DNA of 64,000 nt, from the IMG/VR virus record IMGVR_UViG_3300021960_009431, one strand, 5' to 3'. The position numbers were made by a program, and so were the translations under genes. The notes under the pieces are model-generated. The model saw only the letters and a list, made by a program, of their open reading frames with translations. It ran no database searches and was not told the DNA's origin. This document shows positions 2,915 through 35,659 of this stretch, piece by piece; the stretch's first letter is position 1; the number at the start of each line of letters is the position of its first letter. This DNA is from a virus.

Positions 2915-3526
2915 ATGAAGAATACGACGAAATCGAAGACTTCTACGAGTAGAGCTTTTATCATTGGTAATGGTAAATCTCGCGAAGGTTTCGACTTAGA
3001 GCAATTACGACCGTATGGAGACATTTACGGGTGTAATGCTCTTTATCGCGATTTTGAACCTGACTGGCTTATTGCAATAGATGATGCAATAACTAAAGAG
3101 ATTCAAGATAGCGACTTTCCTCAAAATAAATTTATACATCCAATATATGAAGAGCAATTTGAGCATCCTGAATTCAATCCTTTTACAAGATTGCGCTCTA
3201 ATGCTGGAATGAACGCTATGATGGAAGCACTTAAGCATGGAAAGCGGGAGCTTATATGTTTAGGTTTTGACTTTGTTATTAATAATGAATTATCTGTCAG
3301 TAATTTATATGATGGTACAAACGCTTACGGACCTGAAACTCGTACAGCAGTTCAAGATAATTTAAGAAGAGTAAAGTATCTAGATTGGTTTGCTACAAAA
3401 AATAATGTGGCAACTATTCGAATGATCTTACCTAAAGTAGATAATCTAAAAGTACATAAAATGAATTCTAAAAATATACGAGGTATGTTTATAGACAATT
3501 TAATTGAGTATTTAAATGAAAATTGA
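2915..3526 (+). CDS. Putative CMP-sugar-dependent glycosyltransferase (GT29/GT42/GT73-like fold)
   Basis: AFIIGNGKS..YGCNALY..SNAGMNAMMEALKHGKRELICLGFDF parallels Cst-II VIIAGNGPS..FRCNQFY..SGVYMCAVAIALGYKEIYLSGIDF (recalled, not aligned). Confidence 0.55.
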   Translation: MKNTTKSKTSTSRAFIIGNGKSREGFDLEQLRPYGDIYGCNALYRDFEPDWLIAIDDAITKEIQDSDFPQNKFIHPIYEEQFEHPEFNPFTRLRSNAGMNAMMEALKHGKRELICLGFDFVINNELSVSNLYDGTNAYGPETRTAVQDNLRRVKYLDWFATKNNVATIRMILPKVDNLKVHKMNSKNIRGMFIDNLIEYLNEN

Positions 3527-4097
3527 TCTTTTTAGTACACCTATAACTGTTAATGAATTAAATGAGCAAGTTTTAATTAGTACTAGACGTGCATTAGAAG
3601 AATATCTAAAAGATATAAATTATACTACTTTTGATTCTACTACAAAAACAACGTATCAATTAGATAATATTTTTTCAAGACCAGAGTATAATAAATTAAA
3701 AAAATCTGTTCTTATATATGTTAACGACTACATTACATCTAATAAAATAGATATAGATATTTCAAACTGTGAATTAGATGGTTGGGTTAATATATCAAAT
3801 AAATTTGATTATCAAGAATATCATAATCACAGTAATCCAAAAAATATATTAAGCGGTAATATCTTTATTAATAGTGATGAAAAACAGAAATATGGTAGAC
3901 TAGTTTTTTATAATCCTTTCTCTAATTTAATTCGTTATTCAAGATTAGATTGTAATAATTCTAGTTTTACGGAAAAATATTTTATTAAACCAGAAATAGG
4001 AAAAGTGGTTATTTTTCCTTCCTGGCTTAATCATTCTGTTGAACATAATGACTCAGAAGTAACAAGAATAACAATTTCCTTTAATATAAAATTATAA
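3516..4097 (+). CDS. 2OG-Fe(II) oxygenase (TIGR02466-like)
   Basis: LFSTPI, WVN, HNH, IFPSWLNHSV, RITISFN. Confidence 0.85.
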   Translation: MKIDLFSTPITVNELNEQVLISTRRALEEYLKDINYTTFDSTTKTTYQLDNIFSRPEYNKLKKSVLIYVNDYITSNKIDIDISNCELDGWVNISNKFDYQEYHNHSNPKNILSGNIFINSDEKQKYGRLVFYNPFSNLIRYSRLDCNNSSFTEKYFIKPEIGKVVIFPSWLNHSVEHNDSEVTRITISFNIKL

Positions 4098-4100
4098 ATA
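4093..4100 (+). promoter_or_regulatory. T4-type late promoter
   Basis: Exact TATAAATA upstream of the FmdB-like gene and phoH. Confidence 0.7.
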
Positions 4101-4123
4101 AAAATGTCTGATATGGAGAATTG

Positions 4124-4435
4124 ATGCCGACTTACACTTTTCAAGACAAAAAAACTGGCGATACCTGGGAAGAAATCTGTTCCTGGAATGATCGCTGCGC
4201 CTTCCTCGAAGAAAATCCTCACATTAAAACTATTATAGTGAAGGCTCCTGCCATGGTAGGAAGTCGATATATTAGTGGCATCAAAAATGATGGAGGATGG
4301 AGTGAAAATTTGTCTCGCATAGCTGAAGCACATCCTGGTAGTGCTTTAGCTGCTCAACATGGCCCAAAAGATTCAACGACAGTGAAAACGAGACAAGCTG
4401 TAGAAAAATGGAGGAAGCAGACTGGTAAAACATAA
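4124..4435 (+). CDS. FmdB-family (zinc-ribbon-like) protein
   Basis: MPTYTF..TG..E N-terminus; typical neighbour of phoH in T4-like phages. Confidence 0.65.
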   Translation: MPTYTFQDKKTGDTWEEICSWNDRCAFLEENPHIKTIIVKAPAMVGSRYISGIKNDGGWSENLSRIAEAHPGSALAAQHGPKDSTTVKTRQAVEKWRKQTGKT

Positions 4436-4453
4436 CTCACGAGAGGTACTAAT

Positions 4454-5245
4454 ATGGCCATTGCTGTTGAACTTATTGAACAAGAATTTGATAAAGATAT
4501 AGAAAAAGCAATTACAAGAGCACAAAGAAAAAGATTAAAAAAACAAAAGTACCAACAGAAAAAGCAATTGATAGATATAACGACTATTGATCCGCGCACC
4601 GAAAATCAAGCAAGAGTGTTTGATTCGTTCGATAGTGGAGATAATTTATTACTTCACGGTGTAGCAGGAACAGGAAAAACATTTGTATCTCTCTATCTCG
4701 CATTAGACGATGTGTTTAATGGAGATGATATGAAACGGTCTGTAACAATTATTAGATCAGTAGTTCCAACTCGAGATATGGGTTTCTTACCAGGTAAAGA
4801 GACAGAAAAGACAGCTGTATATGAACAACCTTACCAAGCTATTTGTAGAGAGTTAACCAATAGAGGTGATGGCTATGATGTTCTTAAACAGCGAGGTGTA
4901 ATTAAGTTTACTACTACCTCTTACATTAGGGGATTAACATTAGATAATACTACTCTAGTTGTAGATGAGTGTCAGAATATGACATTTCATGAGCTAGATA
5001 GTATCATTACAAGAGTTGGTGAAAATACTAGAATTATATTTTGTGGTGATTTTAGACAGACTGACTTAAATAAACCGCATGACCAATCTGGAATAAAAGA
5101 GTTTATGAATATTCTAGGGCGTATGAATGGGTTTAACTCCGTAGAATTTGATTACGATGATATTGTAAGATCAGGTTTGGTTAAAGAATATATTATGGCT
5201 AAGGATAAATATGACAATTTATTACCAACGAAACGAGCAGTTTGA
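4454..5245 (+). CDS. phoH: PhoH-family ATPase
   Basis: GVAGTGKT P-loop, GFLPG, YIRGLT, DECQN, GDFRQTD, DIVRSGLV. Confidence 0.95.
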   Translation: MAIAVELIEQEFDKDIEKAITRAQRKRLKKQKYQQKKQLIDITTIDPRTENQARVFDSFDSGDNLLLHGVAGTGKTFVSLYLALDDVFNGDDMKRSVTIIRSVVPTRDMGFLPGKETEKTAVYEQPYQAICRELTNRGDGYDVLKQRGVIKFTTTSYIRGLTLDNTTLVVDECQNMTFHELDSIITRVGENTRIIFCGDFRQTDLNKPHDQSGIKEFMNILGRMNGFNSVEFDYDDIVRSGLVKEYIMAKDKYDNLLPTKRAV

Positions 5246-5912
5246 AAAACATTATAGTGTTAATGAACTAATTGAATCAGCAACTCCGCAAAACTCAAAT
5301 TGGTTGAATAGTATTCCGCCAATTCGACGGGGATTTAAAACATTAAAAGAATGGTTTTTATCACCAGACTCATTAGAAGGTGATGGTATCCCTAGCACTA
5401 TTCGTATGTGCCCAGGTATAAAAGCGTATCTTGATAAATGTATACTTGTTAAATTTTCACACGAGTTACTACTTCAAACAACCTCGCGAGGTCAACTAAA
5501 ATATCAAATCCCGCAAAATAATAGATGCAATATTGTAGTAGAAATCCATAACCCAGATCAATACAGTTCATCTTCATCTAATTTGTTTAACGATAAAATT
5601 AATGTTAAATTCGTTTTACCGTTGAATATACATGTAGATAAAGATAATTATATGATGCCTCAAGTTCCTTATTATCATACAAGTGTGCCTTACGATGTAA
5701 TGCCAGGTATTATTACAAACCGTAATATAGTTAACGAAACAGCTGTAAATGTTATGTTTCCTAAAATAGATGCTGTATATCATTTCAAACAAGGTGACCC
5801 GTTTTGTTACATATATAATTTAAAAGATAATAGAATTAAGCTAAAAGCAAATAATAATAATCTTGCTCGTAAAACCTTCTTAAATAACTTTAATAGAAAT
5901 AAAAATGTTTAA
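5211..5912 (+). CDS. Hypothetical phage protein (possible dUTPase-like beta fold)
   Basis: TIRMCPGI..PGII..GDPFCYI pattern; start overlaps the phoH 3' end. Confidence 0.5.
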   Translation: MTIYYQRNEQFEKHYSVNELIESATPQNSNWLNSIPPIRRGFKTLKEWFLSPDSLEGDGIPSTIRMCPGIKAYLDKCILVKFSHELLLQTTSRGQLKYQIPQNNRCNIVVEIHNPDQYSSSSSNLFNDKINVKFVLPLNIHVDKDNYMMPQVPYYHTSVPYDVMPGIITNRNIVNETAVNVMFPKIDAVYHFKQGDPFCYIYNLKDNRIKLKANNNNLARKTFLNNFNRNKNV

Positions 5913-8293: not shown

Positions 8294-8333
8294 AACTTAT
8301 TGATATCTAATGAAACCTTTTTTCATAAAACAG

Positions 8334-8362
8334 TTGCTATTAAAGTATTTAGTTCATATAAT
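8334..8362 (+). promoter_or_regulatory. Early promoter with upstream TAAC-TTG element
   Basis: TTGCTA-N17-TATAAT, followed by RBS GAGGAG. Confidence 0.85.
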
Positions 8363-8389
8363 ATATGTATGTTAAGAGGAGATATAAAA

Positions 8390-10537: not shown

Positions 10538-10759
10538 ATGAATCTGACTTTATTGAAATGGGCTGCAACATTGACTCTAATAGTAGGAGCAACAACCGCA
10601 GCACTAAACATATATCCAATGTACATAATTCTGAACACATTTGGCGGGATATTGTGGACTACTGCAGGAATTATTATGAAGGACAAGCCGCTGATAGCGA
10701 CAAATAGTTGTTTAACTTTAATTTATGGTTTAGGTGCATTATATGCGATTTATATTTGA
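10538..10759 (+). CDS. Small 3-TM membrane protein (DUF6552-like)
   Basis: LKWAAT..NIYP..LW..G...KDKPLI..N; hydrophobic. Confidence 0.6.
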   Translation: MNLTLLKWAATLTLIVGATTAALNIYPMYIILNTFGGILWTTAGIIMKDKPLIATNSCLTLIYGLGALYAIYI

Positions 10760-11462
10760 TGTTGACGGTACATTAACTCCTAGTAGACAGCGCATAGATT
10801 TAGGCTTCGAAAAATATTTCATGGACTTCTGCGAAGATAATGAAGTATATTTTGTTACTGGATCAGATAGACAAAAGACTTTGGATCAGCTCGGCGTTGA
10901 AATATACGACCGAGCTGTTCGTGTATATAATTGTTCAGGTAATAGTGTATGGGAAAAAGATGTCTGTGTGCACGGAAAAACCTGGGTTCCTGAACCTGAA
11001 GTCTATGATGAGTTAATCTATCTTATGATGGATACAAAATACCCTTATGAATTTACTGGACGTCATATTGAAGGAAGACCTGGCTGTCTTAACTTTTCTG
11101 TAGTTGGACGAAATGCTGATTGGCTTCATAGACAAAAGTATAAAGAGTTTGATAAAAAGAATAATGAACGTGCAATGATGGTAGAACGGTTTAACTCTAA
11201 GTTTCCTGACCTTCAAGCTACTATAGGAGGAGAAACTGGTCTTGATATTTTTCCTAAAGGATGGGATAAAAGTCAAATAGCTAAAATGCATTTTGAAGAT
11301 TGCTCAGATGTTTATTTCTTCGGTGATAAAATGGAAGAAGGAGGTAATGACCTTACTCTTGCTGAAGAAGTAATAAAAAGAGGGGGTCAAGTTTTTGCTG
11401 TAACCGATTATATGGATACTTGGGACACTCTCCTAACTCTCAATACTAATTTTGATAAATAA
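10743..11462 (+). CDS. HAD-IIB phosphomannomutase (eukaryotic PMM-type)
   Basis: FDVDGTLTPSR, VTGSD, IE.R..LNFS.VGR.A, GWDK, FFGDK..GGND. Confidence 0.9.
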   Translation: MRFIFDVDGTLTPSRQRIDLGFEKYFMDFCEDNEVYFVTGSDRQKTLDQLGVEIYDRAVRVYNCSGNSVWEKDVCVHGKTWVPEPEVYDELIYLMMDTKYPYEFTGRHIEGRPGCLNFSVVGRNADWLHRQKYKEFDKKNNERAMMVERFNSKFPDLQATIGGETGLDIFPKGWDKSQIAKMHFEDCSDVYFFGDKMEEGGNDLTLAEEVIKRGGQVFAVTDYMDTWDTLLTLNTNFDK

Positions 11463-13159: not shown

Positions 13160-13861
13160 GTGATGTTGAAAATAAACAATCAGTATTTAAATCCAGTGAT
13201 ATTGATTCCGGCGAGATATGATTCTTCGCGCTTTCCTGGTAAACCTTTAACTCTCTTAAATAATAAACCAATGGTGTCGATGGTATACGATAAATGTATA
13301 GCATCTGGTTTTGATGTGTTTGTAGTTACTGATAGCAGACAAGTATCTCATTGTATACCTTATAAACATGTAATATTTACTGATGATGCTTTTAATGGTA
13401 CAGAGAGATGTAAGTTAGCATTAGCAAATGAAAAATTAATGCAATATGATACTATTATTAACGTTCAAGGGGACATGCCAGACATTACTCCTGATATTAT
13501 TCATTCAGTTTATAATTGTTTAAAACAAGGTTGGGATATTGCAACTGCTTATACAGAGATGCCTGAGCATCTTCTCTCTGACCCTAATTCAGTTAAATTA
13601 ATTCATAATACCTCATTTGCAAACTGGTTTGGAAGAGGAACTAATTATGGTTCTCATCATCTAGGTGTATATGGCTATACTAGAGATATTCTCAAACATT
13701 ACCCTAAAGAAGAATCTAAGCATGAGAAAATAGAAAAACTCGAGCAACTCCGTTGGCTTGATTCAGGCACAACTATTGGAGTAACTCGAGTCGATTTTAA
13801 CGGTATTGAGATCAACTCTCCAGAAGATGTTGATCGATGGCATGCTAACCAATCTTCATAA
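13160..13861 (+). CDS. kdsB: CMP-KDO synthetase (3-deoxy-manno-octulosonate cytidylyltransferase)
   Basis: IPARYDSSRFPGKPL, GTERC, INVQGDMP, HLGVYGY, EKLEQLRWL. Confidence 0.93.
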   Translation: MMLKINNQYLNPVILIPARYDSSRFPGKPLTLLNNKPMVSMVYDKCIASGFDVFVVTDSRQVSHCIPYKHVIFTDDAFNGTERCKLALANEKLMQYDTIINVQGDMPDITPDIIHSVYNCLKQGWDIATAYTEMPEHLLSDPNSVKLIHNTSFANWFGRGTNYGSHHLGVYGYTRDILKHYPKEESKHEKIEKLEQLRWLDSGTTIGVTRVDFNGIEINSPEDVDRWHANQSS

Positions 13862-14327
13862 GAAACTGACCTATTCTACCTACAAACGGTAATAGAGCTA
13901 AAGCCATTATTAAATTCATTCCTGTATGTGCTACTGCTATTCGTAACGTATCCCCTTTAGGCATACCATCTGATACAAAGAATCCAGCAAGCCATATTGT
14001 TCCTGTAGTCCCTATGTTAGCTCCTAACACAGCAGCTACAGCAGCAGGTAAAGGAAGAGCTCCAGATGCTACTAATGCAATAATTGCTGTAGTTGATAAT
14101 GATGACGATTGCCATAATAAAGTCATGACTATTCCACCGATAAACATATAAATCGGATTACCTAAAAAGAATTGTAGGTGGTCCATATTACCCATTGACT
14201 TCATACCTCCTGAGAAAGTTTTGAGGCCAATATAAAAAATCACCAGTCCAACAAGAGCGGTGATTACGGGGTTTCCTAGATCCATTTTCTTTACCTTTTT
14301 CCATAGTTTATTTGCTTTATTACTCAT
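13845..14327 (-). CDS. Na/Pi cotransporter family protein, single repeat (half size)
   Basis: F..GL...S.GMK, LLWQSSSLST, LGANIGTT: the SLC34/NptA repeat signature, present once. Confidence 0.85.
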   Translation of the reverse strand: MSNKANKLWKKVKKMDLGNPVITALVGLVIFYIGLKTFSGGMKSMGNMDHLQFFLGNPIYMFIGGIVMTLLWQSSSLSTTAIIALVASGALPLPAAVAAVLGANIGTTGTIWLAGFFVSDGMPKGDTLRIAVAHTGMNLIMALALLPFVGRIGQFLMKIG

Positions 14328-17127: not shown

Positions 17128-18321
17128 ATGCCAAATATTACGATAACGACTAGCCCGTCTGGTCGTAGTCCTGAGAATAAATATTTTTTCGGTAATCGAA
17201 CTCGAAAGTTAGACTTATCTCGTCCAAAATATAACAAGATTGGAAGTGAAGTAGACTTTTGGGAATTCTATGAAGATATGATTGATCAAGAGTACCACCA
17301 TTATCTTGTGTTCTATTCTGCTGGTAGATGTTTTAGCGTTGAGACTAATGATGACCGGCATGCGCAGTTTGTTCGTAATATGTTTAATGTGATAGATGAT
17401 GATCCTTTGCATGATTATGCAGATTGGAAGATCATTCATAATACATTACTTGATGTTGAACCAACCATATATGTTCACTTAGATGAAAAGATTATGTTAA
17501 TTAGTGGTACAACATTCTTAGGTGAAATCAAAAAGGGTGTGTTTGGTATTCTTGGATTTGAACTGCCAGAAGAAGACAAACTACCAATGCACTGTGCAGC
17601 ATTCACATATAAAGATACAACCAATCTAATGTTTGGTTTGAGCGGAACAGGAAAGACAACTCTGTCTAGTGATCCAGATTATAAACTAATTAGTGATGAT
17701 GAAGTCTACTGGCACAGCGATGGAATTGGTATGATCGAAACTGGTTGCTATGCTAAGTCAGAAGGTCTGTCACCAGAAACTCATAAGACTATTTTTGATG
17801 CTGTTGAATTAGCTAAGAGTAAAGATACTCTAGTAGTTGAGAATCCAGGTGCACCTAATGCTAGATTAAGCTATCCTATAAATTGTGTAGAGAATGCTTA
17901 TCATACTTCTCAGCAATTCAACCATCCAGATAATATATTCTTTCTTACTATGGATGCTAAAGGCGTCTTTCCTGCTGTTAGTAAGATAAGCGGTGAGACA
18001 GTCCGTAAGTTTTTTGAAACCGGATACACAAGTCAGATGCCAGGAACAGAAGCGGGAACTGATGTAATAAAGCCATTATTTAGTCCATGTTATGGATCTC
18101 CATTTATGCCCAGACAGGTAAAAGAATACAGTGATATGCTCATGCAGAAAGTAGAGCAAGTTGATTGTAATGTTTATCTAATCAATACAGGAATGGATAA
18201 GGATGGAAAAAGATATCCTCTAGAATATACCCGACAATGTATCAAAGACGCTATTCAAAAAACAAGTACAGATGAAAGCGAAACAGTTCTTGGTATATTA
18301 GAGGGTCTAATTAATGCGTGA
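17128..18321 (+). CDS. pckA: Phosphoenolpyruvate carboxykinase (ATP), compact 397-aa form
   Basis: GRSP, GEIKK, MHC, FGLSGTGKTTLS, DDE, GCYAK, N.R.SYP, GYTS..GTE, FSPCYGSPF, YLINTG. Confidence 0.92.
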   Translation: MPNITITTSPSGRSPENKYFFGNRTRKLDLSRPKYNKIGSEVDFWEFYEDMIDQEYHHYLVFYSAGRCFSVETNDDRHAQFVRNMFNVIDDDPLHDYADWKIIHNTLLDVEPTIYVHLDEKIMLISGTTFLGEIKKGVFGILGFELPEEDKLPMHCAAFTYKDTTNLMFGLSGTGKTTLSSDPDYKLISDDEVYWHSDGIGMIETGCYAKSEGLSPETHKTIFDAVELAKSKDTLVVENPGAPNARLSYPINCVENAYHTSQQFNHPDNIFFLTMDAKGVFPAVSKISGETVRKFFETGYTSQMPGTEAGTDVIKPLFSPCYGSPFMPRQVKEYSDMLMQKVEQVDCNVYLINTGMDKDGKRYPLEYTRQCIKDAIQKTSTDESETVLGILEGLINA

Positions 18322-19576: not shown

Positions 19577-19720
19577 AAACTATTGCACGACAAAAGGTCT
19601 AGGTTGGGCCTTCTTAATTATTATTATTGGAATGGCAGGCCTGCCTATTCTTGGGTCAGCAATCGCTTATCCGGATAACTGTAAACAATCAATTCTCATT
19701 CCTTGTCTGGGATTAGAATA

Positions 19721-20509
19721 ATGAATAAGTTTATTGCTGCAATGGATCATAGCGGAGGTTCTACTGGAGGAGTCCTAGAGAGATACGGGCAACAGTATAC
19801 AGAAGATAATAAGATGGACTTGGTCCATGAGATGCGTCTTCGTATGGTTAACTCTCCTGATTTTACTAGAGATAATATCTGGGCTGCGATACTATACAAA
19901 GATACTATCGATAAAGGTATGGTTCCTGTTCTAAAGAATAAAGGAATAGAAGCTATCTGTAAGATTGACTCAGGTTGTGAAGAGGATGGTACTCTAAAAG
20001 ACTTTGATATTGATGCAATGATTCAGTATTCAGTAAGTAATGGCTGCTATGGTACTAAGATGAGAAGTATTGTAAAGACAGAAAATATTATGATTCCTCT
20101 ACTAAAACAACAATTCGAATTAGCAAAAGAAATAGCATCTATAGGTCTTGTTCCGATCATTGAACCAGAAGTTCCTATTGATCATCCTAATAAAGCAAAT
20201 ATCGAATCCTGGTTATTAGAATATCTTAAAATACTATTAAGAGATTTTAGTTCGCATTGCATACTTAAATTAACACTCCCTGAGGTGCCAAACTTATATA
20301 AAGAATTAGATAGTGAATGGGTAAAACTAGTTGGTCTCAGTGGAGGGTATACAACGAAAGAAGCATGCAGTCGTCTTGCTGTTAACGATAATATGACAGC
20401 AAGCTTTTCTAGGGCGCTTAGCGAAGGACTATATATTAGTCAGAGTGATAAAGAATTTAACCAAAAAATATCTGATAATATCAGAGAAATAAACAAAGCA
20501 GGGATGTAA
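19721..20509 (+). CDS. fda: Fructose-bisphosphate aldolase class I (bacterial Fda type)
   Basis: FIAAMDHSGGST, GTKMRS, PIIEPEV, LKLTLP (Schiff-base Lys), LSGGY, ASFSRAL. Confidence 0.92.
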   Translation: MNKFIAAMDHSGGSTGGVLERYGQQYTEDNKMDLVHEMRLRMVNSPDFTRDNIWAAILYKDTIDKGMVPVLKNKGIEAICKIDSGCEEDGTLKDFDIDAMIQYSVSNGCYGTKMRSIVKTENIMIPLLKQQFELAKEIASIGLVPIIEPEVPIDHPNKANIESWLLEYLKILLRDFSSHCILKLTLPEVPNLYKELDSEWVKLVGLSGGYTTKEACSRLAVNDNMTASFSRALSEGLYISQSDKEFNQKISDNIREINKAGM

Positions 20510-20865
20510 TGATACTAAGAACAGCATTTATTTTAAGTCTATTAGCCTCACCTTTATTTGCAAATGACAAAGCTTTTAAGAAATGTAAAGCTTGTCATAG
20601 TATAGAGGAAGGTGCGAAGAATGGTACTGGTCCGAACCTATGGAACATAATGAATCGCGGTACAGGTGTCAACGAAGACTACAAGTATAGCAAGAAGTTT
20701 CTAAAATGGGCTGAAGAGAATCCTGTGTGGACTGTAGAGTTGATGGATCAATGGCTTACAAATAGTAAGAAGACAGTGAAAGGCACTAAGATGAATTACA
20801 GAGAAAAGAAAGAGAATAAACGTGCAGAAATTATTGAATATCTTCAAAGCATGGGTGAAGAATAA
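20509..20865 (+). CDS. Cytochrome c2-family class I cytochrome c
   Basis: Signal peptide, CKACH heme motif, GPNL, GTKM distal Met. Confidence 0.93.
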   Translation: MILRTAFILSLLASPLFANDKAFKKCKACHSIEEGAKNGTGPNLWNIMNRGTGVNEDYKYSKKFLKWAEENPVWTVELMDQWLTNSKKTVKGTKMNYREKKENKRAEIIEYLQSMGEE

Positions 20866-25152: not shown

Positions 25153-25829
25153 GCATAGTTCCAATAAAAAATTTAGGTGCTAGTATTGGTCGCACTACTC
25201 TTGATGATAGTTTGATTGAAGATCTTATACAGCATTCGGAAAACTTACATAGAAGAGCTAATGGGTCTCTAGCTGGTAAAATTGAAGACGAAAAATTTTA
25301 TGAAGAAGAAAGTAGAGCATACTTCGAGAAACAATTATTAACTTATGCTGTTAACTTTTATGATGAGTGTGAAAAAGATAAAGGTTTTGTAGTTGATATA
25401 GAATTAAAAAAAATGGCTCAGTGGAGATTAGACGCTCTATGGGTTAATAGACAAGAACCTGGCGAGTATAATCCTATACATGAGCATTCTGGTAATATCT
25501 CATTTGTTATATACTTGCAAATACCTCACGGTATGTATGAAGAGGTAAATCCAACAAACGGTAGCCCTCCAGGATCTATTTCTTTTCGCTACGGCTCAGA
25601 TAATAGAATGTATCCAGCATGGCCTGGAACGGATGGGAAGCTTTCTGAAAGATATGTAATATCGGAATTAGAAACGCCGTTGCGACCATTAACTAATCTT
25701 GAGCTTAAACCAGAAGTAGGAGAAATGTTTATCTTTCCTTCTTTTTTAGCACACAGTGTAGAAGCTTTTTACAGTCCGGGAACAAGAATATCTGTTTCTG
25801 GTAATTTTAGTTTAGATTTTATAAAATGA
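25149..25829 (+). CDS. 2OG-Fe(II) oxygenase
   Basis: WVN.Q..GEYNPIHEH, SFVIYL, IFPS.L.H.V, RISVSGN. Confidence 0.88.
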   Translation: MSIVPIKNLGASIGRTTLDDSLIEDLIQHSENLHRRANGSLAGKIEDEKFYEEESRAYFEKQLLTYAVNFYDECEKDKGFVVDIELKKMAQWRLDALWVNRQEPGEYNPIHEHSGNISFVIYLQIPHGMYEEVNPTNGSPPGSISFRYGSDNRMYPAWPGTDGKLSERYVISELETPLRPLTNLELKPEVGEMFIFPSFLAHSVEAFYSPGTRISVSGNFSLDFIK

Positions 25830-26503
25830 ATGATTTAATATTATTTCCAAGCTTGCCAAGATCAGGCTCTACTCTTTTATCTAGTATACTGAATCAACAT
25901 CCACAAGTGTATGTTACCCAGACGTCAAATTTTGTTGATGTATTATGGAAAAATAATTCATGCTGGGAAAGTAATACACCTGAATCTAATGTAAGTTATT
26001 TTACAAATATAAAAGATGACTATTTAAAACAAATAACTAATTTATATTTTTCTCACTATACAGATAAAGATATAATTGTGGATAAAAGCCGTTATTGGTT
26101 TAATCTCAATAATTTACATATGTACTATACAGTGTATGGAAAATATCCTAAAATAATTTGCACTGTAAGAGATAGAGATGAAATAATTAACTCGTTTATT
26201 AATGTAGCACAAAAGAGTCTTATTACTTTTAATGGACATCATCAAAGAAATTTAATAGATAAATTTTATAATGAGTATCAACAAATTAAAAAAACTCATT
26301 TTAAAGACTGTTTTCACTATATTGAATATAATTCGATTGTAGATGATACTGATAGTGTAATGAAACAGCTTTGTAAATATTTAGAAATATCAGATTTTAA
26401 ATTTGATTATAATAATGTTGAATCTAATTTAGAAGCAGAGTTAGATAGTATGATAGGATTTAAAAATTTACATTATGTTCGTAATGAGATAAAAAGGAGA
26501 TAA
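25826..26503 (+). CDS. Sulfotransferase-family protein
   Basis: LPRSGSTLLSSILNQHP PAPS loop, DKSR.W, KII..VRD...I..S. Confidence 0.85.
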   Translation: MNDLILFPSLPRSGSTLLSSILNQHPQVYVTQTSNFVDVLWKNNSCWESNTPESNVSYFTNIKDDYLKQITNLYFSHYTDKDIIVDKSRYWFNLNNLHMYYTVYGKYPKIICTVRDRDEIINSFINVAQKSLITFNGHHQRNLIDKFYNEYQQIKKTHFKDCFHYIEYNSIVDDTDSVMKQLCKYLEISDFKFDYNNVESNLEAELDSMIGFKNLHYVRNEIKRR

Positions 26504-27266: not shown

Positions 27267-28049
27267 ATGAGAATTATTGCTGGTCCATGTCAACATGAAT
27301 CACTTGAGCAGTCATTAGAGATTGCTCGAGTATGTAAATGGGTTTGTGATCAATACGGCTTTGAATATATTTTTAAAGCATCATTCGATAAAGCTAATCG
27401 TACTTCTATGAACGGTATTAGAGGTGCTGGACTTATTAATACACTAAACGACTTTAGAAGATTAAAAGATGCAATACCAAATCTTAAAATTCTTACAGAT
27501 GTACATGATGTAGACCAAATTGAAAAGTTAGAGATGGATGAATTCTGTGGCTTAGTAGATGTATTACAAATTCCAGCTTTCTTATGCCGGCAAACAGATC
27601 TTATTCGCAAAGCTTGCGAGACTGATTGTATTGTTAATATTAAGAAAGGCCAGTTTCTTGCACCATGGGACATAAAAGGTATATTATCTAAAACAGAAGG
27701 TGCTAAAGAAGTATGGATAACTGAAAGAGGAACTAGTTTTGGTTATAATAATCTTGTTGTCGATTTTAATGGTTTGCAGTACATGCTTGATAACTATAGC
27801 GTTCCGATTGTATTTGATGCAACACACTCGTGCCAGAAACCTGGTGGAAGCGGTGAAAGTTCAGGTGGCAATCGTGCTTGGGTCCCAGGGCTCACTCGTG
27901 CTGCTTCTGCTTTGGGCATATCTAACTTCTTCTTAGAAGTGCATCCAGATCCAGATAACGCACCCAGTGATGGTCCTAATATGATTAAGTTAGAAAATTT
28001 TCAATCAGTAATAGATAGTATAGATAGGTTTAAAAATGAAAGCAGGTAA
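27267..28049 (+). CDS. kdsA: KDO-8-phosphate synthase, metal-dependent type
   Basis: AGPC..ES, KASFDKANRTS, QIPAFLCRQTDL, KKGQFL, ERGTSFGY, DATHS, E.HPDP..A.SDG. Confidence 0.96.
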   Translation: MRIIAGPCQHESLEQSLEIARVCKWVCDQYGFEYIFKASFDKANRTSMNGIRGAGLINTLNDFRRLKDAIPNLKILTDVHDVDQIEKLEMDEFCGLVDVLQIPAFLCRQTDLIRKACETDCIVNIKKGQFLAPWDIKGILSKTEGAKEVWITERGTSFGYNNLVVDFNGLQYMLDNYSVPIVFDATHSCQKPGGSGESSGGNRAWVPGLTRAASALGISNFFLEVHPDPDNAPSDGPNMIKLENFQSVIDSIDRFKNESR

Positions 28050-29923: not shown

Positions 29924-29946
29924 TTTTAGTTTTGTGAAAAAAACAG

Positions 29947-29975
29947 TTGCACTTTATTCTGAAAGAGTCTATTAT
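29947..29975 (+). promoter_or_regulatory. Early promoter
   Basis: AAAAAAACAG-TTGCAC-N17-TATTAT, RBS AAGGAG. Confidence 0.85.
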
Positions 29976-30005
29976 ATATTATAAGTTGTTAATAAGGAGA
30001 TACTT

Positions 30006-30197: not shown

Positions 30198-30209
30198 GGA
30201 GAATTAAAT

Positions 30210-31151
30210 ATGTCACATCAAGTTGAAACTATGGCTTATGCCGGTGAAGTTCCTTGGCATGGATTAGGTGTTAAAGTTAATGATGATCTCACTGTAGATG
30301 AGATGATCGCGGCTGCTGGTCTCGATTGGACCGTTAGTAAGCAGCCTACTTTTTATCGCATTGGCGATGAAGAAATAGCGACAGGTAAGTATGCTCTTAT
30401 CAGGGATACAGATAAGCAGTTCCTGTCGAATGTCTCCGACGGGTGGGAGCCGTGTCAGAATGTTGATGCGTTTTCTATCTTTGAGGAGTTTGTAGAGCGC
30501 AATGAACTAGAAATGCATACAGCAGGTTCATTGAAGGACGGCAGAGTAGTCTGGGGTCTTGCAAAAATGAAAGATCAGTTTGCTTTGTTTAACGATGATG
30601 TGACGGAACAGTATCTCCTCCTCGTCAATCCGCACACGTTCGGTAACGGCATTCACGTCCGCTCTACCCCTATTCGAGTTGTTTGTAATAACACTCTATC
30701 ATTTGCTCTTGGTTCAGCATCTGATGTTAAATCAACTCAGAATCATCGTAAGATGTTTGACGTAGATCAAATGAAGCAAGCTATCGGACTTACTCGTGAG
30801 AAGCTTGCTCAGTATGAGACTATGGCTTCATTTCTTGCTAGTAAGCAGTTTAGTGAAGAAAAGTTTAAAGAGTATCTTAACGTTGTATTTCCTAATTTCT
30901 CTAAGAAAGAAGGAGCTGAGTTAAATCTTTCTCGTAATGCTAATCGTGCATTAGAGATTGTAGACACTCAACCTGGTGCAGAATTTGGACGAGGCACTTG
31001 GTGGCAAGCTTTTAATTCAGTTACTTACTTGACTGATCATGAGCTTGGTCGTAGTCAAGATTCTCGGTTGAACTCTGCTTGGTTAGGAGTTAATAAAGAT
31101 CGTAAGAATATGGCTTTAGAAAAGGCTGTTGAGTTTGCAGAAGCAGCATAA
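30210..31151 (+). CDS. DUF932 / LGT_TIGR03299 phage-plasmid protein
   Basis: PWHGLG, AGLDW.V, QN, TAGSL..GR, TPIRVVCNNTL, GT.W.A.N.VT..DH. Confidence 0.9.
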   Translation: MSHQVETMAYAGEVPWHGLGVKVNDDLTVDEMIAAAGLDWTVSKQPTFYRIGDEEIATGKYALIRDTDKQFLSNVSDGWEPCQNVDAFSIFEEFVERNELEMHTAGSLKDGRVVWGLAKMKDQFALFNDDVTEQYLLLVNPHTFGNGIHVRSTPIRVVCNNTLSFALGSASDVKSTQNHRKMFDVDQMKQAIGLTREKLAQYETMASFLASKQFSEEKFKEYLNVVFPNFSKKEGAELNLSRNANRALEIVDTQPGAEFGRGTWWQAFNSVTYLTDHELGRSQDSRLNSAWLGVNKDRKNMALEKAVEFAEAA

Positions 31152-32643
31152 AATAAACAACATTGTTGTAGTAGGGGGCGGTAGTGCTGGTTGGCTTACC
31201 GCTCTTACTGTTCATGCATATCAACCTGATAAAAATATAGTATTAATCGAAAGCGATGATATTGGTATATTAGGTGCAGGTGAAGGAACTATTCCTCATT
31301 TCACAGAAGCAATGCTTAATATTTTAAATATTGATTTTACTGATTTAATTAATAACACAAACGGTACAGTAAAAAATTCTATTAAATTTACAGGTTGGAA
31401 TAAATCTAATATAGATTTTCACCACACGTTTAATGCATTTGGCCCTCTATCTTATAATTCTTATAATGATAAACAAGATCAAACTTCTTTATTAATATCT
31501 CATCTATATGCTAATAATGATAATATTATTAATAAAGAAGCCATATCTTCACTAAGTGAAGAAACTAAAGTTCCTATTCTCAAAGATAATCTAGAAAGAT
31601 TAGCACCATTTGCTGTTCATTTTGACGCTCAGTTGTTAGCAAAATATTTACGTACACTAGCTATAGAAAGAGGTGTAACTAGAGTAGAAGGAATTATTGC
31701 ATCGTATGATGAGGATAATTCTGGTGATATTACTAATGTAATATTAAAAGATGGTAAAAATATACCATGTGATTTTATATTTGATTGTTCTGGTTTGCAT
31801 AGACAAATAATTGGTAAGCATTATAACAGTGAATGGATTTCTTATAAGGACAGCTTACCAGTAAATAGAGCATTACCATTCTTTATTAAAACTGATAATG
31901 ATCATAATCTTCATCCATACACTGAAGCTATTGCAATGAAGTATGGTTGGGTTTGGAAAATTCCTGTACAAGGTAGATATGGTTGTGGTTATGTTTTTGA
32001 TTCAAATTATTTAACTGATGATCAAGCATTACAAGAAGTAAAAGAATTATTTGGAGAAGATATTACTTCGCCTAGACAATTTTCTTTTGAGGCAGGTAGA
32101 TATAAAGAGGTGTGGAAAAATAATTGTATAGCTATAGGACTATCACAAGGCTTTATTGAACCGTTAGAAGCCACATCAATATATGTTTCTTGTGTTTCGT
32201 TAATTACCGCACTATCAAACTTCTATAAATTAGAAAAGAGAGATCAACTTTTTATAGATGAATACAATAATATATTTGCAAAAAGAATGCAAGAAATATT
32301 AGATTTTATCTATTTTCATTACATAACAGATAGAACTGATACTGATTTTTGGAAACACTTTACTATTAGAAATAAAGTTCCTGACTCATTAAAAGAAAAA
32401 TTATCAACATGGCAAAAAAGATTACCAGTTGAATCTGATTTAAATCATAAAGCAATTTTTGGATTACATAGTTGGTTAATGATTGGTACGGGTAATAATT
32501 TTATAAACAAAGACCGTTACCAACAAGAAATATTTGACTATAATAACTTTAATATCAATATCGAAGAGTATAATAAAAGAAAAGAACGTGCTGTTAATGA
32601 TAGCATATTACACAAAGATTTTTTAAATATATTAAAAAAGTAG
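31129..32643 (+). CDS. Tryptophan-halogenase-family flavin-dependent enzyme
   Basis: GGGSAGW, GAGEGT, K, DCSG, GWVWKIP (WxWxIP), GFIEPLEATSI. Confidence 0.9.
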   Translation: MSLQKQHKINNIVVVGGGSAGWLTALTVHAYQPDKNIVLIESDDIGILGAGEGTIPHFTEAMLNILNIDFTDLINNTNGTVKNSIKFTGWNKSNIDFHHTFNAFGPLSYNSYNDKQDQTSLLISHLYANNDNIINKEAISSLSEETKVPILKDNLERLAPFAVHFDAQLLAKYLRTLAIERGVTRVEGIIASYDEDNSGDITNVILKDGKNIPCDFIFDCSGLHRQIIGKHYNSEWISYKDSLPVNRALPFFIKTDNDHNLHPYTEAIAMKYGWVWKIPVQGRYGCGYVFDSNYLTDDQALQEVKELFGEDITSPRQFSFEAGRYKEVWKNNCIAIGLSQGFIEPLEATSIYVSCVSLITALSNFYKLEKRDQLFIDEYNNIFAKRMQEILDFIYFHYITDRTDTDFWKHFTIRNKVPDSLKEKLSTWQKRLPVESDLNHKAIFGLHSWLMIGTGNNFINKDRYQQEIFDYNNFNINIEEYNKRKERAVNDSILHKDFLNILKK

Positions 32644-32672
32644 TTGCCTTTTATTTCATTTGTTCCTATAAT
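32644..32672 (+). promoter_or_regulatory. Early promoter
   Basis: AG-TTGCCT-N17-TATAAT. Confidence 0.82.
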
Positions 32673-32700
32673 ATGGTATAAAATGAAATAAGGATTTATT

Positions 32701-33270
32701 ATGAATAATGTGATATTAACAGATGCCGATGGCGTACTTCTTAACTGGGAGTACGCCTTCGATTGTTGGATGGAAGAGAAAGGTTATACACCTTTAACTC
32801 GAGACATCTATGATGTAAATTCTCGATATGGATTAGATAAAGAAGAAAAAGATTTACTAGTGAGGTCTTTTAACGAGTCAGCTGCAATTGGCTTTCTTCC
32901 TCCTCTACGTGATGCTATTCATTATGTGCGTAAGCTACATGAAGAGCATGGTTATATTTTTCGAGTAATTACATCGCTTAGTCTCAATAAGCATGCTGGA
33001 CGTCTTCGTCAGAAGAACTTATTTAAGTTGTTTGGTACTGCTATTGATGACGTTCTGTGCTTGGATACAGGTGCAGATAAAGACGAAGCTTTAGCACCTT
33101 ATAAAGATTCAGGTATGATTTGGATCGAAGATAAGCCTGAGAATGCTGATCTTGGTGCTGAGCTTGGTCTTACATCTTATTTGATTGAACATAAACATAA
33201 TATGAATCATGATAACAATGATGTTACTATCGTAAAGAACTGGAAAGAGCTTTATGAGTTGATCTCCTAG
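32701..33270 (+). CDS. HAD-family protein, T4 gp30.2-like (5'-nucleotidase-like)
   Basis: ILTDADGVLLNW, FN.S, ITS, R..NL..LFG, WIEDK. Confidence 0.8.
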   Translation: MNNVILTDADGVLLNWEYAFDCWMEEKGYTPLTRDIYDVNSRYGLDKEEKDLLVRSFNESAAIGFLPPLRDAIHYVRKLHEEHGYIFRVITSLSLNKHAGRLRQKNLFKLFGTAIDDVLCLDTGADKDEALAPYKDSGMIWIEDKPENADLGAELGLTSYLIEHKHNMNHDNNDVTIVKNWKELYELIS

Positions 33271-33300
33271 TATGGTAAAAATACCATACTTTTTATTTAT
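33269..33300 (+). terminator. Intrinsic terminator upstream of tmRNA
   Basis: 9-bp stem AGTATGGTA/TACCATACT followed by a T-rich run. Confidence 0.7.
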
Positions 33301-33334
33301 TTTTTAGTTTCAGGGAAAAAATAAACCTATACTA

Positions 33335-33341
33335 CTAAATA
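33335..33341 (+). promoter_or_regulatory. Late promoter-like CTAAATA driving tmRNA
   Basis: Matches the TAAATA core also seen before late structural genes in this window. Confidence 0.55.
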
Positions 33342-33347
33342 AAATTG

Positions 33348-33602
33348 TTAACGTTGAAGCAACGTAGACGTATTCTGGACCTGGGGGCGGTACCCAGCAG
33401 CTCCACCAAGTGTACATTTAATGAGTGTATAGTTGATGGGGCTGAAATAGGATCGACAGGTGCGAAAGTGAAGTGGAGTTAACCGGATGACTGCGTTATT
33501 GGTCAACAACTACAAATGCAAACGATAATTTTGCACCATCTGGTTATGCACTAGCTGCATAGGCACAGGGGGAGGCCACTGCCTAGCAACAGAAGTGTGG
33601 CG
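33348..33602 (+). ncRNA. ssrA: Circularly permuted two-piece tmRNA (alphaproteobacterial type)
   Basis: Acceptor piece: T-arm CTGGG-GGCGGTA-CCCAG plus CAGCTCC-A-CCA ending at 33408. Coding piece: 5' GGGGCTG at 33438 (G3.U70 pair); tag ANDNFAPSGYALAA* at 33518-33562. Outer ends approximate. Confidence 0.95.
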
Positions 33603-33625
33603 TTCAACTATAAGAGGAGATCATT

Positions 33626-33859
33626 ATGGAAGTTCTAAACAAAGTAAAATCATGGGCAGGTGCTCTAGCTGAGGTTGGTCTTAGCGTAGCAGCTCTTGCA
33701 ATCATACTAGAAGTCCTAGGTATGGGTAACATGCCATTCATGCCAGAAGGTATGAGCGTAGTAGATAATGTTTCAGCTATGATATCAGGTCTAGGTTCAC
33801 AAGGTGTGATGGGTTTGATCGCTGTTTGGGTTCTATATGAAATCTGGAATCGTAAATAA
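33626..33859 (+). CDS. Small membrane protein
   Basis: RBS GAGGAG; two hydrophobic helices. Confidence 0.7.
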   Translation: MEVLNKVKSWAGALAEVGLSVAALAIILEVLGMGNMPFMPEGMSVVDNVSAMISGLGSQGVMGLIAVWVLYEIWNRK

Positions 33860-33875
33860 TAAGAAAGAACGATAA

Positions 33876-34250
33876 ATGAAAGTTTTAACTACAGCTGCAG
33901 TTGCAGCTACTTTTTTAACTACTGCAGCTTATGCTGTAGACCTGGGTAACGGATTGACTGTAGGTGGTGAGCTGGATGCTCATTGGGCAGTTGATGCTGA
34001 AGCACTGTCAATGACATTAACACCTGAAATTGGTTATAATGCATGGGGTAATGATTTTACTGCGTCTACAGATTTGGATGTATACAAAAATGAAGATGTA
34101 GTTATTGGTGATGCATTTGACTCACTAGTAGTTGACTTCAAAGTGACACGTCCATGGATGTCAAATATTGAATTGTATGGGGAAACTTCTTGGGATTTCG
34201 ATGCTGAAGAGCGTGGAGAGATTTCAGTAGGTGCAACATTCTCATTTTAA
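33876..34250 (+). CDS. Small outer-membrane beta-barrel-like protein
   Basis: Signal peptide (AYA|V), alternating beta-strands, C-terminal beta-signal VGATFSF. Confidence 0.7.
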   Translation: MKVLTTAAVAATFLTTAAYAVDLGNGLTVGGELDAHWAVDAEALSMTLTPEIGYNAWGNDFTASTDLDVYKNEDVVIGDAFDSLVVDFKVTRPWMSNIELYGETSWDFDAEERGEISVGATFSF

Positions 34251-34269
34251 TTTATAGATAAACAAATGA

Positions 34270-34293
34270 AAAGGGGCTCAGGCCCCTTTTTTT
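34270..34293 (+). terminator. Intrinsic terminator
   Basis: AAAAGGGGC-TCAG-GCCCCTTTTTTT. Confidence 0.9.
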
Positions 34294-34304
34294 GTATAAA
34301 ACAG

Positions 34305-34333
34305 TTGCCTTCTGTTGTGAATTATATTATTAT
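34305..34333 (+). promoter_or_regulatory. Early promoter
   Basis: AAAACAG-TTGCCT-N17-TATTAT, RBS AGGAG. Confidence 0.82.
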
Positions 34334-34358
34334 AATATAACGAGCAGGAGAGAAAAAA

Positions 34359-34880
34359 ATGAAATACTTGGTAAAAGTACTTTCAGCTATTTTAATAGCT
34401 GTGTCATCTACTTTTTTATTTGCAACTACTAATATTGTATTAGCAGATGCTGAAAAAAGAGGGATGGATAAAAATGAAATAGAGTGTCTTGCACTTAATA
34501 TCTATTTCGAAACTAGCGCAGTATCTTTAGCAGACGCAATTGCAGTTTCAGATGTTGTAATGAATAGAATCAACTCAACACGTTACCCTGATACTGTTTG
34601 TGAAGTAGTGAAGCAAGGGCATAAACATCCTAACGGTGCAATGAAGAGACATCAATGTCAGTTTAGTTGGTATTGTGATGGTAAATCCGATACACCAAAT
34701 AATTATGAAGCTTGGGAAAGATCTAGAACAGTAGCTTATGATATGTATATAAACAAAACATATATTGGTATTACTGAAGGCTCTACCCATTATCATGCTA
34801 ACTATGTTTCACCAGCTTGGGCTAAGCAATTACAAAGAATTACTCGAGTAGGTTCTCATATCTTTTATAGGCAGAATTAA
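34359..34880 (+). CDS. Cell wall hydrolase, SleB/Hydrolase_2 family
   Basis: CLALNIYFE, V.NR, YPDTVCEVV, CQFSWYCDGK, THYHA.YV.P.W, HIFY. Confidence 0.92.
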   Translation: MKYLVKVLSAILIAVSSTFLFATTNIVLADAEKRGMDKNEIECLALNIYFETSAVSLADAIAVSDVVMNRINSTRYPDTVCEVVKQGHKHPNGAMKRHQCQFSWYCDGKSDTPNNYEAWERSRTVAYDMYINKTYIGITEGSTHYHANYVSPAWAKQLQRITRVGSHIFYRQN

Positions 34881-35659
34881 TGAAGTATGTTTTAGTGACT
34901 GGAGGATTTGATCCTCTGCATTCTGGTCATATTGAATATTTTAAAGCAGCGAAAAATCTAGGACATAAACTTATTGTAGGTTTAAACTCAGATGAATGGT
35001 TAACAAGAAAAAAAGGTAAACCTTTCTTGCCGTTTGAAGAAAGAGCAGCTATAATAAAAGAATTACAGATGGTTGATGAAGTCATCAAGTTCATTGATAA
35101 AGATGATACAGCTTGTAATGCTATCTATAAAGCTCTAACTATAGCAGGAAGTCATAATGATGTTATTTTTGCTAATGGTGGAGATAGAGAAAATAATAAT
35201 ACACCTGAATATAAATTATACAAAAATACATACGGTTTGAAATTTGCTTGGGGTGTTGGTGGTAACGATAAAATTAATTCGTCTAGCTGGATTTTAGATG
35301 AATGGAAAACTCAAAAGACTGAGCGTGATTGGGGTTACTGGAGAGTATTAGACGATAAGCAACCTGATGTAGGTATTAAAGTAAAAGAATTAGTTATTGA
35401 ACCAGGTTGTAACTTAAGTGATCAAAAGCATTACAGTCGTTCAGAGCACTGGTATATTCTTGAAGGCGATTTACAAATCGATTTAGAATATCCAAATGGG
35501 GAATGGCAAATACAGATGTTATCTCAACATACTACATTTGTAATACCTCAAGGCACATGGCATAAAACAACTAATATAGGTAAAACAAAAGCTCACATTC
35601 TCGAAGTTCAATATGGAGAGAAATGTGTAGAGGAGGATATAGAGCGTAGAAATGGTTGA
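34880..35659 (+). CDS. Cytidylyl/adenylyltransferase (HxGH) fused to a mannose-6-P-isomerase-like cupin
   Basis: GGFDPLHSGH, LNSD, FANGGDR, SSS; then ER.WG, S.Q.H..RSEHW, WH, EVQYG..EEDIER. Confidence 0.85.
   Translation: MKYVLVTGGFDPLHSGHIEYFKAAKNLGHKLIVGLNSDEWLTRKKGKPFLPFEERAAIIKELQMVDEVIKFIDKDDTACNAIYKALTIAGSHNDVIFANGGDRENNNTPEYKLYKNTYGLKFAWGVGGNDKINSSSWILDEWKTQKTERDWGYWRVLDDKQPDVGIKVKELVIEPGCNLSDQKHYSRSEHWYILEGDLQIDLEYPNGEWQIQMLSQHTTFVIPQGTWHKTTNIGKTKAHILEVQYGEKCVEEDIERRNG

Follow-up and report, generated by a model that had tools for sequence, protein, structure and literature searches.

3-Deoxy-D-manno-octulosonate (Kdo) joins lipid A to the remainder of lipopolysaccharide (LPS), and the pathway that supplies it is a long-studied antibacterial target. 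The bacterial pathway comprises KdsD, KdsA, KdsC, and KdsB, followed by a transferase, WaaA or KpsC/KpsS. Here, we describe Kdo genes carried by a phage, in a 64,000-nt stretch of IMG/VR record IMGVR_UViG_3300021960_009431 (the window; all coordinates refer to the whole stretch). The phage KdsA and KdsB-type proteins are clear homologues of the bacterial enzymes, with their motifs intact. Unlike in the bacterial pathway, the genes are phage borne and scattered over 25 kb, no SIS/CBS-type KdsD, KdsC, or known Kdo transferase was found in the window, and a small cupin appears to stand at KdsD's step. We conclude, with a probability of about 0.6, that the window holds a phage Kdo supply module whose parts were scattered by rearrangement and in which the cupin replaces KdsD. 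By homology, the product of the KdsA/KdsB route should be CMP-Kdo.

Kdo genes have been described in marine T4-like phages. The Synechococcus phage S-SCSM2R carries KdsA and KdsB, which were read as cell surface modification genes (PMC12801897), and a T4-like viral genome from Tara contains LPS genes, including kdsA, that were given the same reading (PMC5332604). The window KdsA is ~41% identical to the S-SCSM2R copy. The relevant passages of these two papers (PMC12801897 and PMC5332604) mention neither a cupin partner, nor a linkage to PckA, nor a missing KdsD step. A survey of pelagimyophages, in its passage on such genes, mentions LPS genes but not Kdo (PMC7029224).

Two other groups of described enzymes resemble products of the window. 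The type II phosphomannose isomerase (PMI) cupins (PF01050) and the archaeal cupin-type phosphoglucose/phosphomannose isomerases are likewise small metal-binding cupins, and they interconvert the aldose and ketose forms of sugar phosphates. Unlike the type II PMI cupins, the phage cupin is without a PF01050 match, has kdsA and kdsB as its partners, and would act on a pentose phosphate. The GT42 sialyltransferases Cst-I and Cst-II and the Maf nonulosonic acid transferases (PF01973) have fold and motifs in common with the protein encoded at position 2915, which, unlike them, is only 203 aa long and is without the lid/membrane association region. New here are the demonstration that the cassette has been rearranged, the evidence from bacterial operons and from the absence of KdsD, the reassignment of a phosphatase of the haloacid dehalogenase (HAD) type to an aldolase, and the fold and distribution of the 2915 protein.

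Genes for KdsA and a KdsB-type enzyme in the window

The initial annotation, made from the DNA letters, had proposed a dispersed phage pathway for making and transferring Kdo. Comparisons with Pfam, NCBIfam, and PDB sequences found all of the genes that it named to be present, intact, and in place (Table 1). KdsA passed the curated equivalog model NF003543 (325.4 bits versus a cutoff of 242), was borderline against TIGR01362 (313 versus 314), and matched PF00793 with an E value of 5e-54. All 40 of its PDB matches at E <= 1e-20 were Kdo-8-phosphate synthases, the best being Brucella KdsA (3fs2; E 7e-74). In the alignment with 3fs2, the motifs GPCQ, FDKANRTS, FDATHS, FLEVH, and PSDGPN were all matched; we take these to hold the cysteine of the metal-type enzymes and the residues of the substrate and metal site. 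The kdsA start codon (ATG) overlaps the stop codon of an upstream open reading frame (ORF) of 73 aa.

The second enzyme is encoded at 13160-13861. Its five best NCBIfam matches were KdsB models, and because the scores fall under the curated cutoffs in each case, the protein is called KdsB-like here. KdsB accounted for all 13 of its PDB matches at E <= 1e-10 (best E, 8e-25), and the aligned motifs included PARYxSxRxPGKPL, GTER, VQGDxP, and LEQLR. The KdsB-like (PF02348) product is most probably KdsB. Homology and motifs thus bear out the claim that the phage encodes both a KdsA and a KdsB-type enzyme.

The window also encodes a compact phosphoenolpyruvate (PEP) carboxykinase, PckA, which scores under the NCBIfam cutoffs and for which a role in supplying PEP is probable. 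Neither tblastn nor a Pfam scan of ~50 ORFs detected a relative of KdsD or KdsC in the window, in agreement with the initial annotation. WaaA was matched by none of the scanned ORFs, and no separate WaaA search was made.

The kds genes form a compact cassette in related phages

In IMG/VR, 227 stretches encode a KdsA relative, and 80 loci with 67 to 83% identity were kept for comparison. Contig ends truncate many of these loci, and the counts of kdsA neighbors are accordingly minimum values. A kdsB gene lay within 10 kb of kdsA, mostly abutting it, in 57 of the 80 loci, and the cupin gene was present in 56. With a median identity of 77% (maximum, 94%), the cupin is conserved above KdsA, and no other protein of the cassette is as conserved. 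A phosphomannomutase (PMM) gene was near kdsA in 27 loci, adjoining the cupin gene in several, and a gene for a nucleotidyltransferase-cupin fusion lay within 10 kb in 23. Most of the kdsA-neighbor families in these relatives were without a match in Pfam or NCBIfam.

Gene order in individual loci shows how these parts belong together. One contig (L013) carries a gapless kdsA-pckA-kdsB-cupin-PMM series, and pckA stands between kdsA and kdsB in both L013 and L020, tying PckA to the Kdo module as had been proposed. In the closest relative (L001), the order is kdsA-cupin-74aa-kdsB, and the genes that flank kdsB and those that flank kdsA in the window together surround this single kds block. Since both sets of flanking genes border one block in L001, the window differs from it in having the kdsA block transposed. 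The compact operon of the related contigs thus identifies the scattered layout of the window as a rearranged cassette. The co-occurrence across related phages that the annotation had named as a check was found for kdsA, kdsB, the cupin gene, pckA, and PMM. An entire clade of phages that are abundant in the ocean thus appears to invest in an activated envelope sugar, with pckA inside the operon in relatives.

One sub-lineage (L024, L025, L034-L039, L049, and L071) has a different arrangement. A gene for a PTPS/QueD-like protein (PTPS, 6-pyruvoyl-tetrahydropterin synthase) lies ~450 bp upstream of kdsA in these contigs, between kdsA and a divergent paralogue of the 2915 gene, and kdsB is replaced by the gene for an unannotated protein of 271 aa.

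The cupin is probably a replacement for KdsD

The gene that overlaps the end of kdsA encodes a cupin that matched only Cupin_2, plus a weak match to WbuC, in Pfam and NCBIfam. It is not a member of the KdsD family (TIGR00393; SIS plus CBS domains), having the fold of a cupin barrel: its AlphaFold2 (AF2) model (predicted local distance difference test [pLDDT] score, 89) is a generic, all-beta cupin barrel. Ten related phage contigs were searched for an SIS domain, and none was found. Among them are a complete genome (157 kb, with terminal repeats) and one that is 91% complete, both of which carry kdsA, kdsB, and the cupin gene.

A scan of prokaryotic genomes, one per species, yielded 16 cupin-encoding loci, of which 3 (L249, L250, and L252) are bacterial and represent two lineages. 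L252 lies on a 731-kb alphaproteobacterial contig of 62% G+C, in the order ELM1-like GT-B gene, kdsA, kdsB, and cupin, with kdsB and the cupin gene overlapping and with a Tad pilus gene, an alcohol dehydrogenase gene, and a sulfotransferase gene as neighbors of the operon. Two related SAR324-type genomes contributed L249 and L250, which have the order kdsB-cupin-kdsA, flanked in both by an aldo-keto reductase gene, a Gig2-like gene, and a DUF2225 gene. In L249, a canonical kdsC (TIGR01670, 141 bits) follows directly 3' of kdsA, giving kdsB-cupin-kdsA-kdsC. The phage and bacterial proteins are 64 to 69% identical for the cupin, ~47% for KdsA, and 30 to 34% for KdsB.

These three genomes bear on the step at which the cupin acts. 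In each, the sole KdsA above the cutoff is the one encoded beside the cupin, and a search for KdsD found no match, with CBS-domain fragments alone scoring. In a set of 41 genomes centered on the SAR324-type pair, 37 have KdsD, and both cupin carriers are among the 4 without it (exact test, p ~0.007, where the two carriers are kin and amount to one event). In a corresponding set for the alphaproteobacterium, 31 of 41 genomes have KdsD, and the sole cupin carrier is among the 10 that do not. Cupin orthologues were thus found in 2 of 41 and 1 of 41 genomes of the two sets. Because the cupin sits in the only kdsA/kdsB operon of genomes in which KdsD, usual in their relatives, is undetected, it is probably a nonorthologous arabinose-5-phosphate isomerase. 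This comparison, together with the phage gene order, makes the KdsD substitution suggested in the initial annotation probable. A literature search on cupin-type arabinose-5-phosphate isomerases returned nothing relevant.

Several observations weigh against this conclusion. The cupin has no match to the type II PMI model PF01050, and its fold search gave a flat list of generic cupins (Z, 11 to 13.7); since the listed folds are undifferentiated, the search is uninformative on function. The KdsB-like protein falls short of its best NCBIfam models (NF003952, 159 bits versus 193; TIGR00466, 106 versus 155). As the completeness of the cupin-bearing genomes, which are metagenome-assembled genomes (MAGs), is unstated, KdsD may be missing through an assembly gap, and eight further relatives beyond the cupin carriers also lack a KdsD match. 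The cupin occurs in just two independent bacterial lineages and is rare; of 88 genomes examined in one phylum, 2 have it. There is no sign of a swap in place, as the KdsD neighborhoods of relatives share no gene with the cupin operon. Finally, the cupin gene abuts PMM in some phages (L052), which makes a role in a mannose branch possible.

That last arrangement, seen in L013, L052, and L054, leads to the alternative that the cupin is another sugar enzyme, either a mannose-6-phosphate or heptose isomerase or a Kdo-modifying enzyme, and that the phage boosts KdsA and KdsB activity while relying on host KdsD. Gram-negative hosts have a KdsD of their own, the nearest PDB sequence match to the cupin (7zvm; E 0.008) is a small protein that was deposited as a mannose-6-phosphate isomerase, and Joint Genome Institute (JGI) labels for its relatives read "mannose-6-phosphate isomerase-like." However, the conserved partners of the cupin in the bacterial operons are kdsA, kdsB, and kdsC only, with PMM not nearby, and KdsD was not detected in those genomes. 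A PMI-type cupin is, moreover, already present in the phage, fused to the nucleotidyltransferase, and the high conservation of the free cupin within the kds cassette also points away from a mannose branch. We consider this alternative unlikely, and a nonorthologous replacement for KdsD is the preferred reading of the cupin.

If it is correct, a second, unrelated enzyme for the first committed step would change how the Kdo pathway is recognized in genomes, and genomes now scored as lacking KdsD may be complete. The cupin is a small protein and is easily assayed. A broader proposal is that the cupin is the founding member of a non-SIS class of arabinose-5-phosphate isomerase, a new one, and has displaced KdsD both in a large marine clade of T4-like phages and in two or more bacterial lineages. 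The phage would then have its own supply line leading from oxaloacetate and pentose phosphate to CMP-Kdo and on into a phage-directed glycan that GT42/Maf-like and GT4 transferases build. We hold this broader proposal tentatively, at slightly under an even chance.

Two observations accompany the scan of prokaryotes. Cupin-bearing contigs (64 to 84% identity) were also found in MAGs of unrelated taxa (L243-L248, L251, and L253-L257), namely, Microbacteriaceae, Verrucomicrobiales, archaea, Rickettsiales, and Neomarinimicrobiota; most of these are probably phage contigs that were misbinned. The remote matches of the cupin profile in the bacteria examined were mostly to open frames of ~480 aa, known by size only. 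Bifunctional type II PMIs are ~480 aa long and are sugar-phosphate aldose-ketose isomerases.

A predicted route to CMP-Kdo

PckA would make PEP, as its homology and the order of genes in relatives indicate. The 115-aa cupin, unrelated to KdsD, would convert ribulose-5-phosphate to arabinose-5-phosphate, as comparative genomics suggests. KdsA, for which homology support is strong, would then condense arabinose-5-phosphate and PEP to Kdo-8-phosphate. Dephosphorylation would fall to host KdsC or to an unspecific phosphatase, and the KdsB-like enzyme would make CMP-Kdo, as its homology predicts. KdsC is dispensable in Escherichia coli, so the phage need not encode a Kdo-8-phosphate phosphatase. 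A branch formed by PMM and the nucleotidyltransferase-PMI cupin fusion would probably yield NDP-mannose or NDP-heptose (NDP, nucleoside diphosphate). The activated sugars may feed a glycan, for which the candidate transferases are the 2915 protein and the GT4 enzyme at the edge of the window, neither of which is tied to the Kdo genes.

The HAD phosphatase is paired with an aldolase

The cap-less HAD phosphatase resembles KdsC in overall type, and the initial annotation had put it forward as a KdsC substitute. It has no match to the KdsC model TIGR01670. Its nearest characterized relatives are PDB 9iqw, a "capsule biosynthesis protein" (E 4e-10), and, weakly, TIGR01689 (E 1.5e-3). Its genomic context was read in 80 loci that encode the HAD protein at 78 to 85% identity. 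The HAD gene was followed directly by the aldolase gene in 75 of these, whereas kdsA lay within 6 kb in only 4; PckA was near it in 9. Among five phage contigs searched, two of them complete or nearly so, KdsC had no match and the HAD protein was present in one. It was not found in the complete or the 91%-complete genome that carries kdsA, kdsB, and the cupin gene.

The aldolase partner, the rarity of kdsA nearby, and the absence from complete kdsA-bearing relatives argue against the KdsC assignment. The HAD protein is probably a sugar-bisphosphate phosphatase that acts with the class I aldolase on the gluconeogenic side. This was the part of the initial annotation that fell; the KdsA and KdsB-type enzymes, the probable KdsD role of the cupin, and the linkage of PckA were supported. 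The HAD protein, the aldolase, and PckA together resemble a phage gluconeogenesis set.

Two other assignments were rejected. The PMM-like HAD-IIB protein was considered as the missing Kdo-8-phosphate phosphatase and was set aside on the strength of its full-length alignment with PMM and its retained cap Arg and Asn residues. The HAD protein and an upstream phosphoribosyltransferase were considered as a ribosylation/dephosphorylation pair dependent on phosphoribosyl pyrophosphate, modeled on Haemophilus influenzae type b Bcs3 and Campylobacter jejuni Cj1432 (PMC12096443). The phosphoribosyltransferase (28% identity) was near the HAD gene in 6 of 80 loci and resembles a purine salvage enzyme, which argues against such a pair.

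The 2915 protein has a predicted GT42/Maf-like fold

The protein encoded at 2915 has no Pfam match at E <= 1 and no NCBIfam match. A profile built from 22 members of its family matched, among PDB sequences, GT42 sialyltransferases only (Cst-I, Cst-II, and 9c08; E 4e-5 to 6e-4), with alignment of an N-terminal GNGxS and of CN, (S/T)xG, and GxDF. Nine of the 22 members matched PF06002 (CST-I; best, 1e-5), and seven matched PF01973 weakly (best, 6.5e-4). The AF2 model (pLDDT, 89) gave as its best VIA-align match the Maf flagellin glycosyltransferase 5mu5 (Z 11.3 over 159 residues), followed by Cst-I 2p56 (Z 9.1 over 157 residues), the MptE kinase 8sd5 (Z 7.6), thiamin/pterin pyrophosphokinases (~7.5), and GT29 sialyltransferases (~7). 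A kinase reading is the weaker one, since kinase Z scores are ~7.5 versus 11.3 for Maf and 9.1 for Cst-I. The Cst-II-like motifs reported earlier are therefore borne out by the family profile, and the predicted structure resembles Cst-I and Maf more closely than an MptE-like kinase.

The active site is less well conserved. Cst-II His188, which we take to be catalytic, and Tyr156 and Tyr162, which we take to bind phosphate, have no conserved counterpart in the family profile alignment. The column taken as His188 holds Gln147 in the 2915 protein, no His is invariant across the family, and a near-invariant Asp148 adjoins this column. The protein has no lid or membrane association region. We nonetheless favor, on fold and motifs, its candidacy as a glycosyltransferase of the type that uses CMP-ulosonic acids.

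Whether its donor would be Kdo is more doubtful. The family has at least 595 matches in IMG/VR, and context was read in 80 loci. DUF6433 adjoined the 2915 family in all 80, rnh lay upstream in 73, and a GT4 gene lay ~3 kb upstream in 52; kdsA was within 8 kb in 4. Long contigs that carry the family also encode KdsA elsewhere (3 of 3), and a divergent paralogue stands just upstream of kdsA in 10 of 80 kdsA loci, all of them closely related contigs. The family was found on 2 of 10 kdsA contigs and was not found in the complete or the 91%-complete genome with kdsA, kdsB, and the cupin gene. Because of the conserved rnh-DUF6433 block and these complete relatives without the family, the link to Kdo is unproven, and Kdo as the donor is a tentative suggestion that we would not favor. 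A lead from the ESM Atlas toward WaaZ-type Kdo transferases (GT73, PF27901; score, 0.87) was not confirmed: an hhalign comparison of the family profile with E. coli WaaZ was not significant (E 0.049; probability, 1%), aligning the GxD(F/L) motif only. A distant homologue, gp002 of phage HTVC008M, adjoins a NodU-like carbamoyltransferase.

Taken with the HAD results, these distributions make it improbable that the phage encodes every step itself, with the cupin as KdsD, the HAD protein as KdsC, and the 2915 protein transferring Kdo to LPS, capsule, or virion proteins. The cap-less phosphatase, the GT42-like fold and motifs, the paralogue beside kdsA, the KdsA on the long contigs, and the WaaZ lead speak for such a pathway. 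However, the HAD gene keeps company with the aldolase gene and the 2915 family with DUF6433 and rnh, both are missing from the complete and 91%-complete cassette-bearing genomes, the paralogue cases come from close kin, and neither the WaaZ comparison nor the search with TIGR01670 gave support. Two tempting assignments are corrected in this way: the HAD protein goes with the aldolase, and gene context does not connect the 2915 protein with Kdo synthesis.

A second sugar branch and the target of the activated sugar

The PMM of the window aligns over its full length with eukaryotic-type PMMs (PDB 5ue7; E 5e-31). DVDGT is matched there, as are the R..N..GRN..R cap residues, which are presumably the phosphate-binding residues of PMM2-type mutases. 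The nucleotidyltransferase domain of the fusion protein is RfaE-domain-II/TagD-like (RfaE domain II, 70 bits), and cyanophage homologues of the fusion sit beside heptose pathway genes. On this evidence, PMM and the fusion protein probably form a second branch that makes NDP-mannose or NDP-heptose.

A supply of CMP-Kdo by the phage suggests a glycan on the surface or on the virion; possible purposes of the sugar are the masking of receptors, a virion glycan, and another target. Transfer to phage DNA or another nonenvelope target, rather than remodeling of host LPS or capsule, is the least probable of the explanations considered: some T4-like phages put arabinose on hydroxymethylcytosine, and the genes here have replication genes (rnh, gp59, and gp32) around them on the same strand, but neither gene 42 nor a DNA glycosyltransferase was seen among the scanned ORFs of the window.

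A sulfotransferase gene lies three genes upstream of kdsA in the window, and its product is possibly a glycan-tailoring enzyme. The bacterial kdsA-kdsB-cupin operon likewise has a Sulfotransfer_3/tetratricopeptide repeat (TPR)-sulfotransferase gene as a neighbor (L252, 8186-9787, minus strand). Sulfotransferases near kdsA in both the phage and L252 may indicate a sulfated glycan.

Phage setting and other features of the window

The window (~34% G+C) comes from an uncultured marine T4-like myovirus and holds its accessory gene region. T4-type baseplate genes (gp5, 6, 7, 8, and 10) lie at 43 to 55 kb, and the gp6 homologue is ~42% identical to its counterparts in Pelagibacter phage HTVC008M and Methylophilales phage Melnitz. 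A megablast search with 10 kb of the window against a cultured-phage collection gave no DNA-level match. The accessory region, at 1 to 37 kb, is bounded by rnh (1504-2361) and gp59/gp32 (35876-37452), and its genes are densely packed on a single strand. It includes genes for PhoH, at least five 2-oxoglutarate (2OG)-Fe(II) oxygenases, a cytochrome c, a sulfotransferase, and a tryptophan halogenase (Table 1).

Table 1. Features of the window, with coordinates, strand, and supporting matches
Feature	Coordinates	Strand	Evidence or remark
GT4 glycosyltransferase, C-terminal part, cut by window edge	2-619	+	PF00534 E 1e-11
DUF6433 protein	2361-2789	+	PF20025 E 1e-24; constant upstream neighbor of 2915 family
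GT42/Maf-like-fold protein, 203 aa	2915-3526	+	Family profile, AF2, VIA-align
Eukaryotic-type phosphomannomutase (HAD-IIB)	10743-11462	+	PF03332 E 6e-27, 95 bits versus cutoff of 22
kdsB-like, CMP-Kdo synthetase	13160-13861	+	PF02348 E 7e-22; PDB matches
Na+/Pi cotransporter domain, 160 aa, fragment-sized	13845-14327	-	PF02690 E 8e-16; directly after kdsB
PckA, compact ATP-type PEP carboxykinase, 397 aa (short form)	17128-18321	+	PF01293 E 2e-89
Minimal cap-less HAD phosphatase, 110 aa	19244-19576	+	DIDGT...DD motifs
Class I fructose-bisphosphate aldolase	19703-20509	+	NF003784 234 bits; PDB 2iqt E 4e-44
Cytochrome c	20509-20865	+	Among accessory genes
Sulfotransferase	25826-26503	+	PF13469 E 6e-19; three genes upstream of kdsA
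kdsA, Kdo-8-phosphate synthase, metal-type (GPCQ Cys)	27267-28049	+	NF003543, PF00793, PDB 3fs2
Small metal-site cupin, 115 aa	28036-28383	+	Cupin_2; 14-nt overlap with kdsA stop
Flavin-dependent tryptophan halogenase family protein, full-length	31129-32643	+	PF04820 E 3e-110
Cytidylyl/adenylyltransferase-like domain fused to type II PMI cupin	34880-35659	+	PF01467 E 2e-14; PF01050 E 2e-18

A permuted, two-piece alpha-type transfer-messenger RNA (tmRNA) is encoded at 33301-33604 on the plus strand, with the ARAGORN tag peptide ANDNFAPSGYALAA and Rfam scores of 117.9 bits for RF01849 and 123.5 bits for RF04321. Because the phage tmRNA is of the permuted alpha type, an alphaproteobacterial (SAR11-like) host is suggested, and the host is probably an alphaproteobacterium. 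Among the ORFs listed for 1 to 36.5 kb, the only sizeable one on the minus strand is that of the cotransporter domain at 13845-14327.

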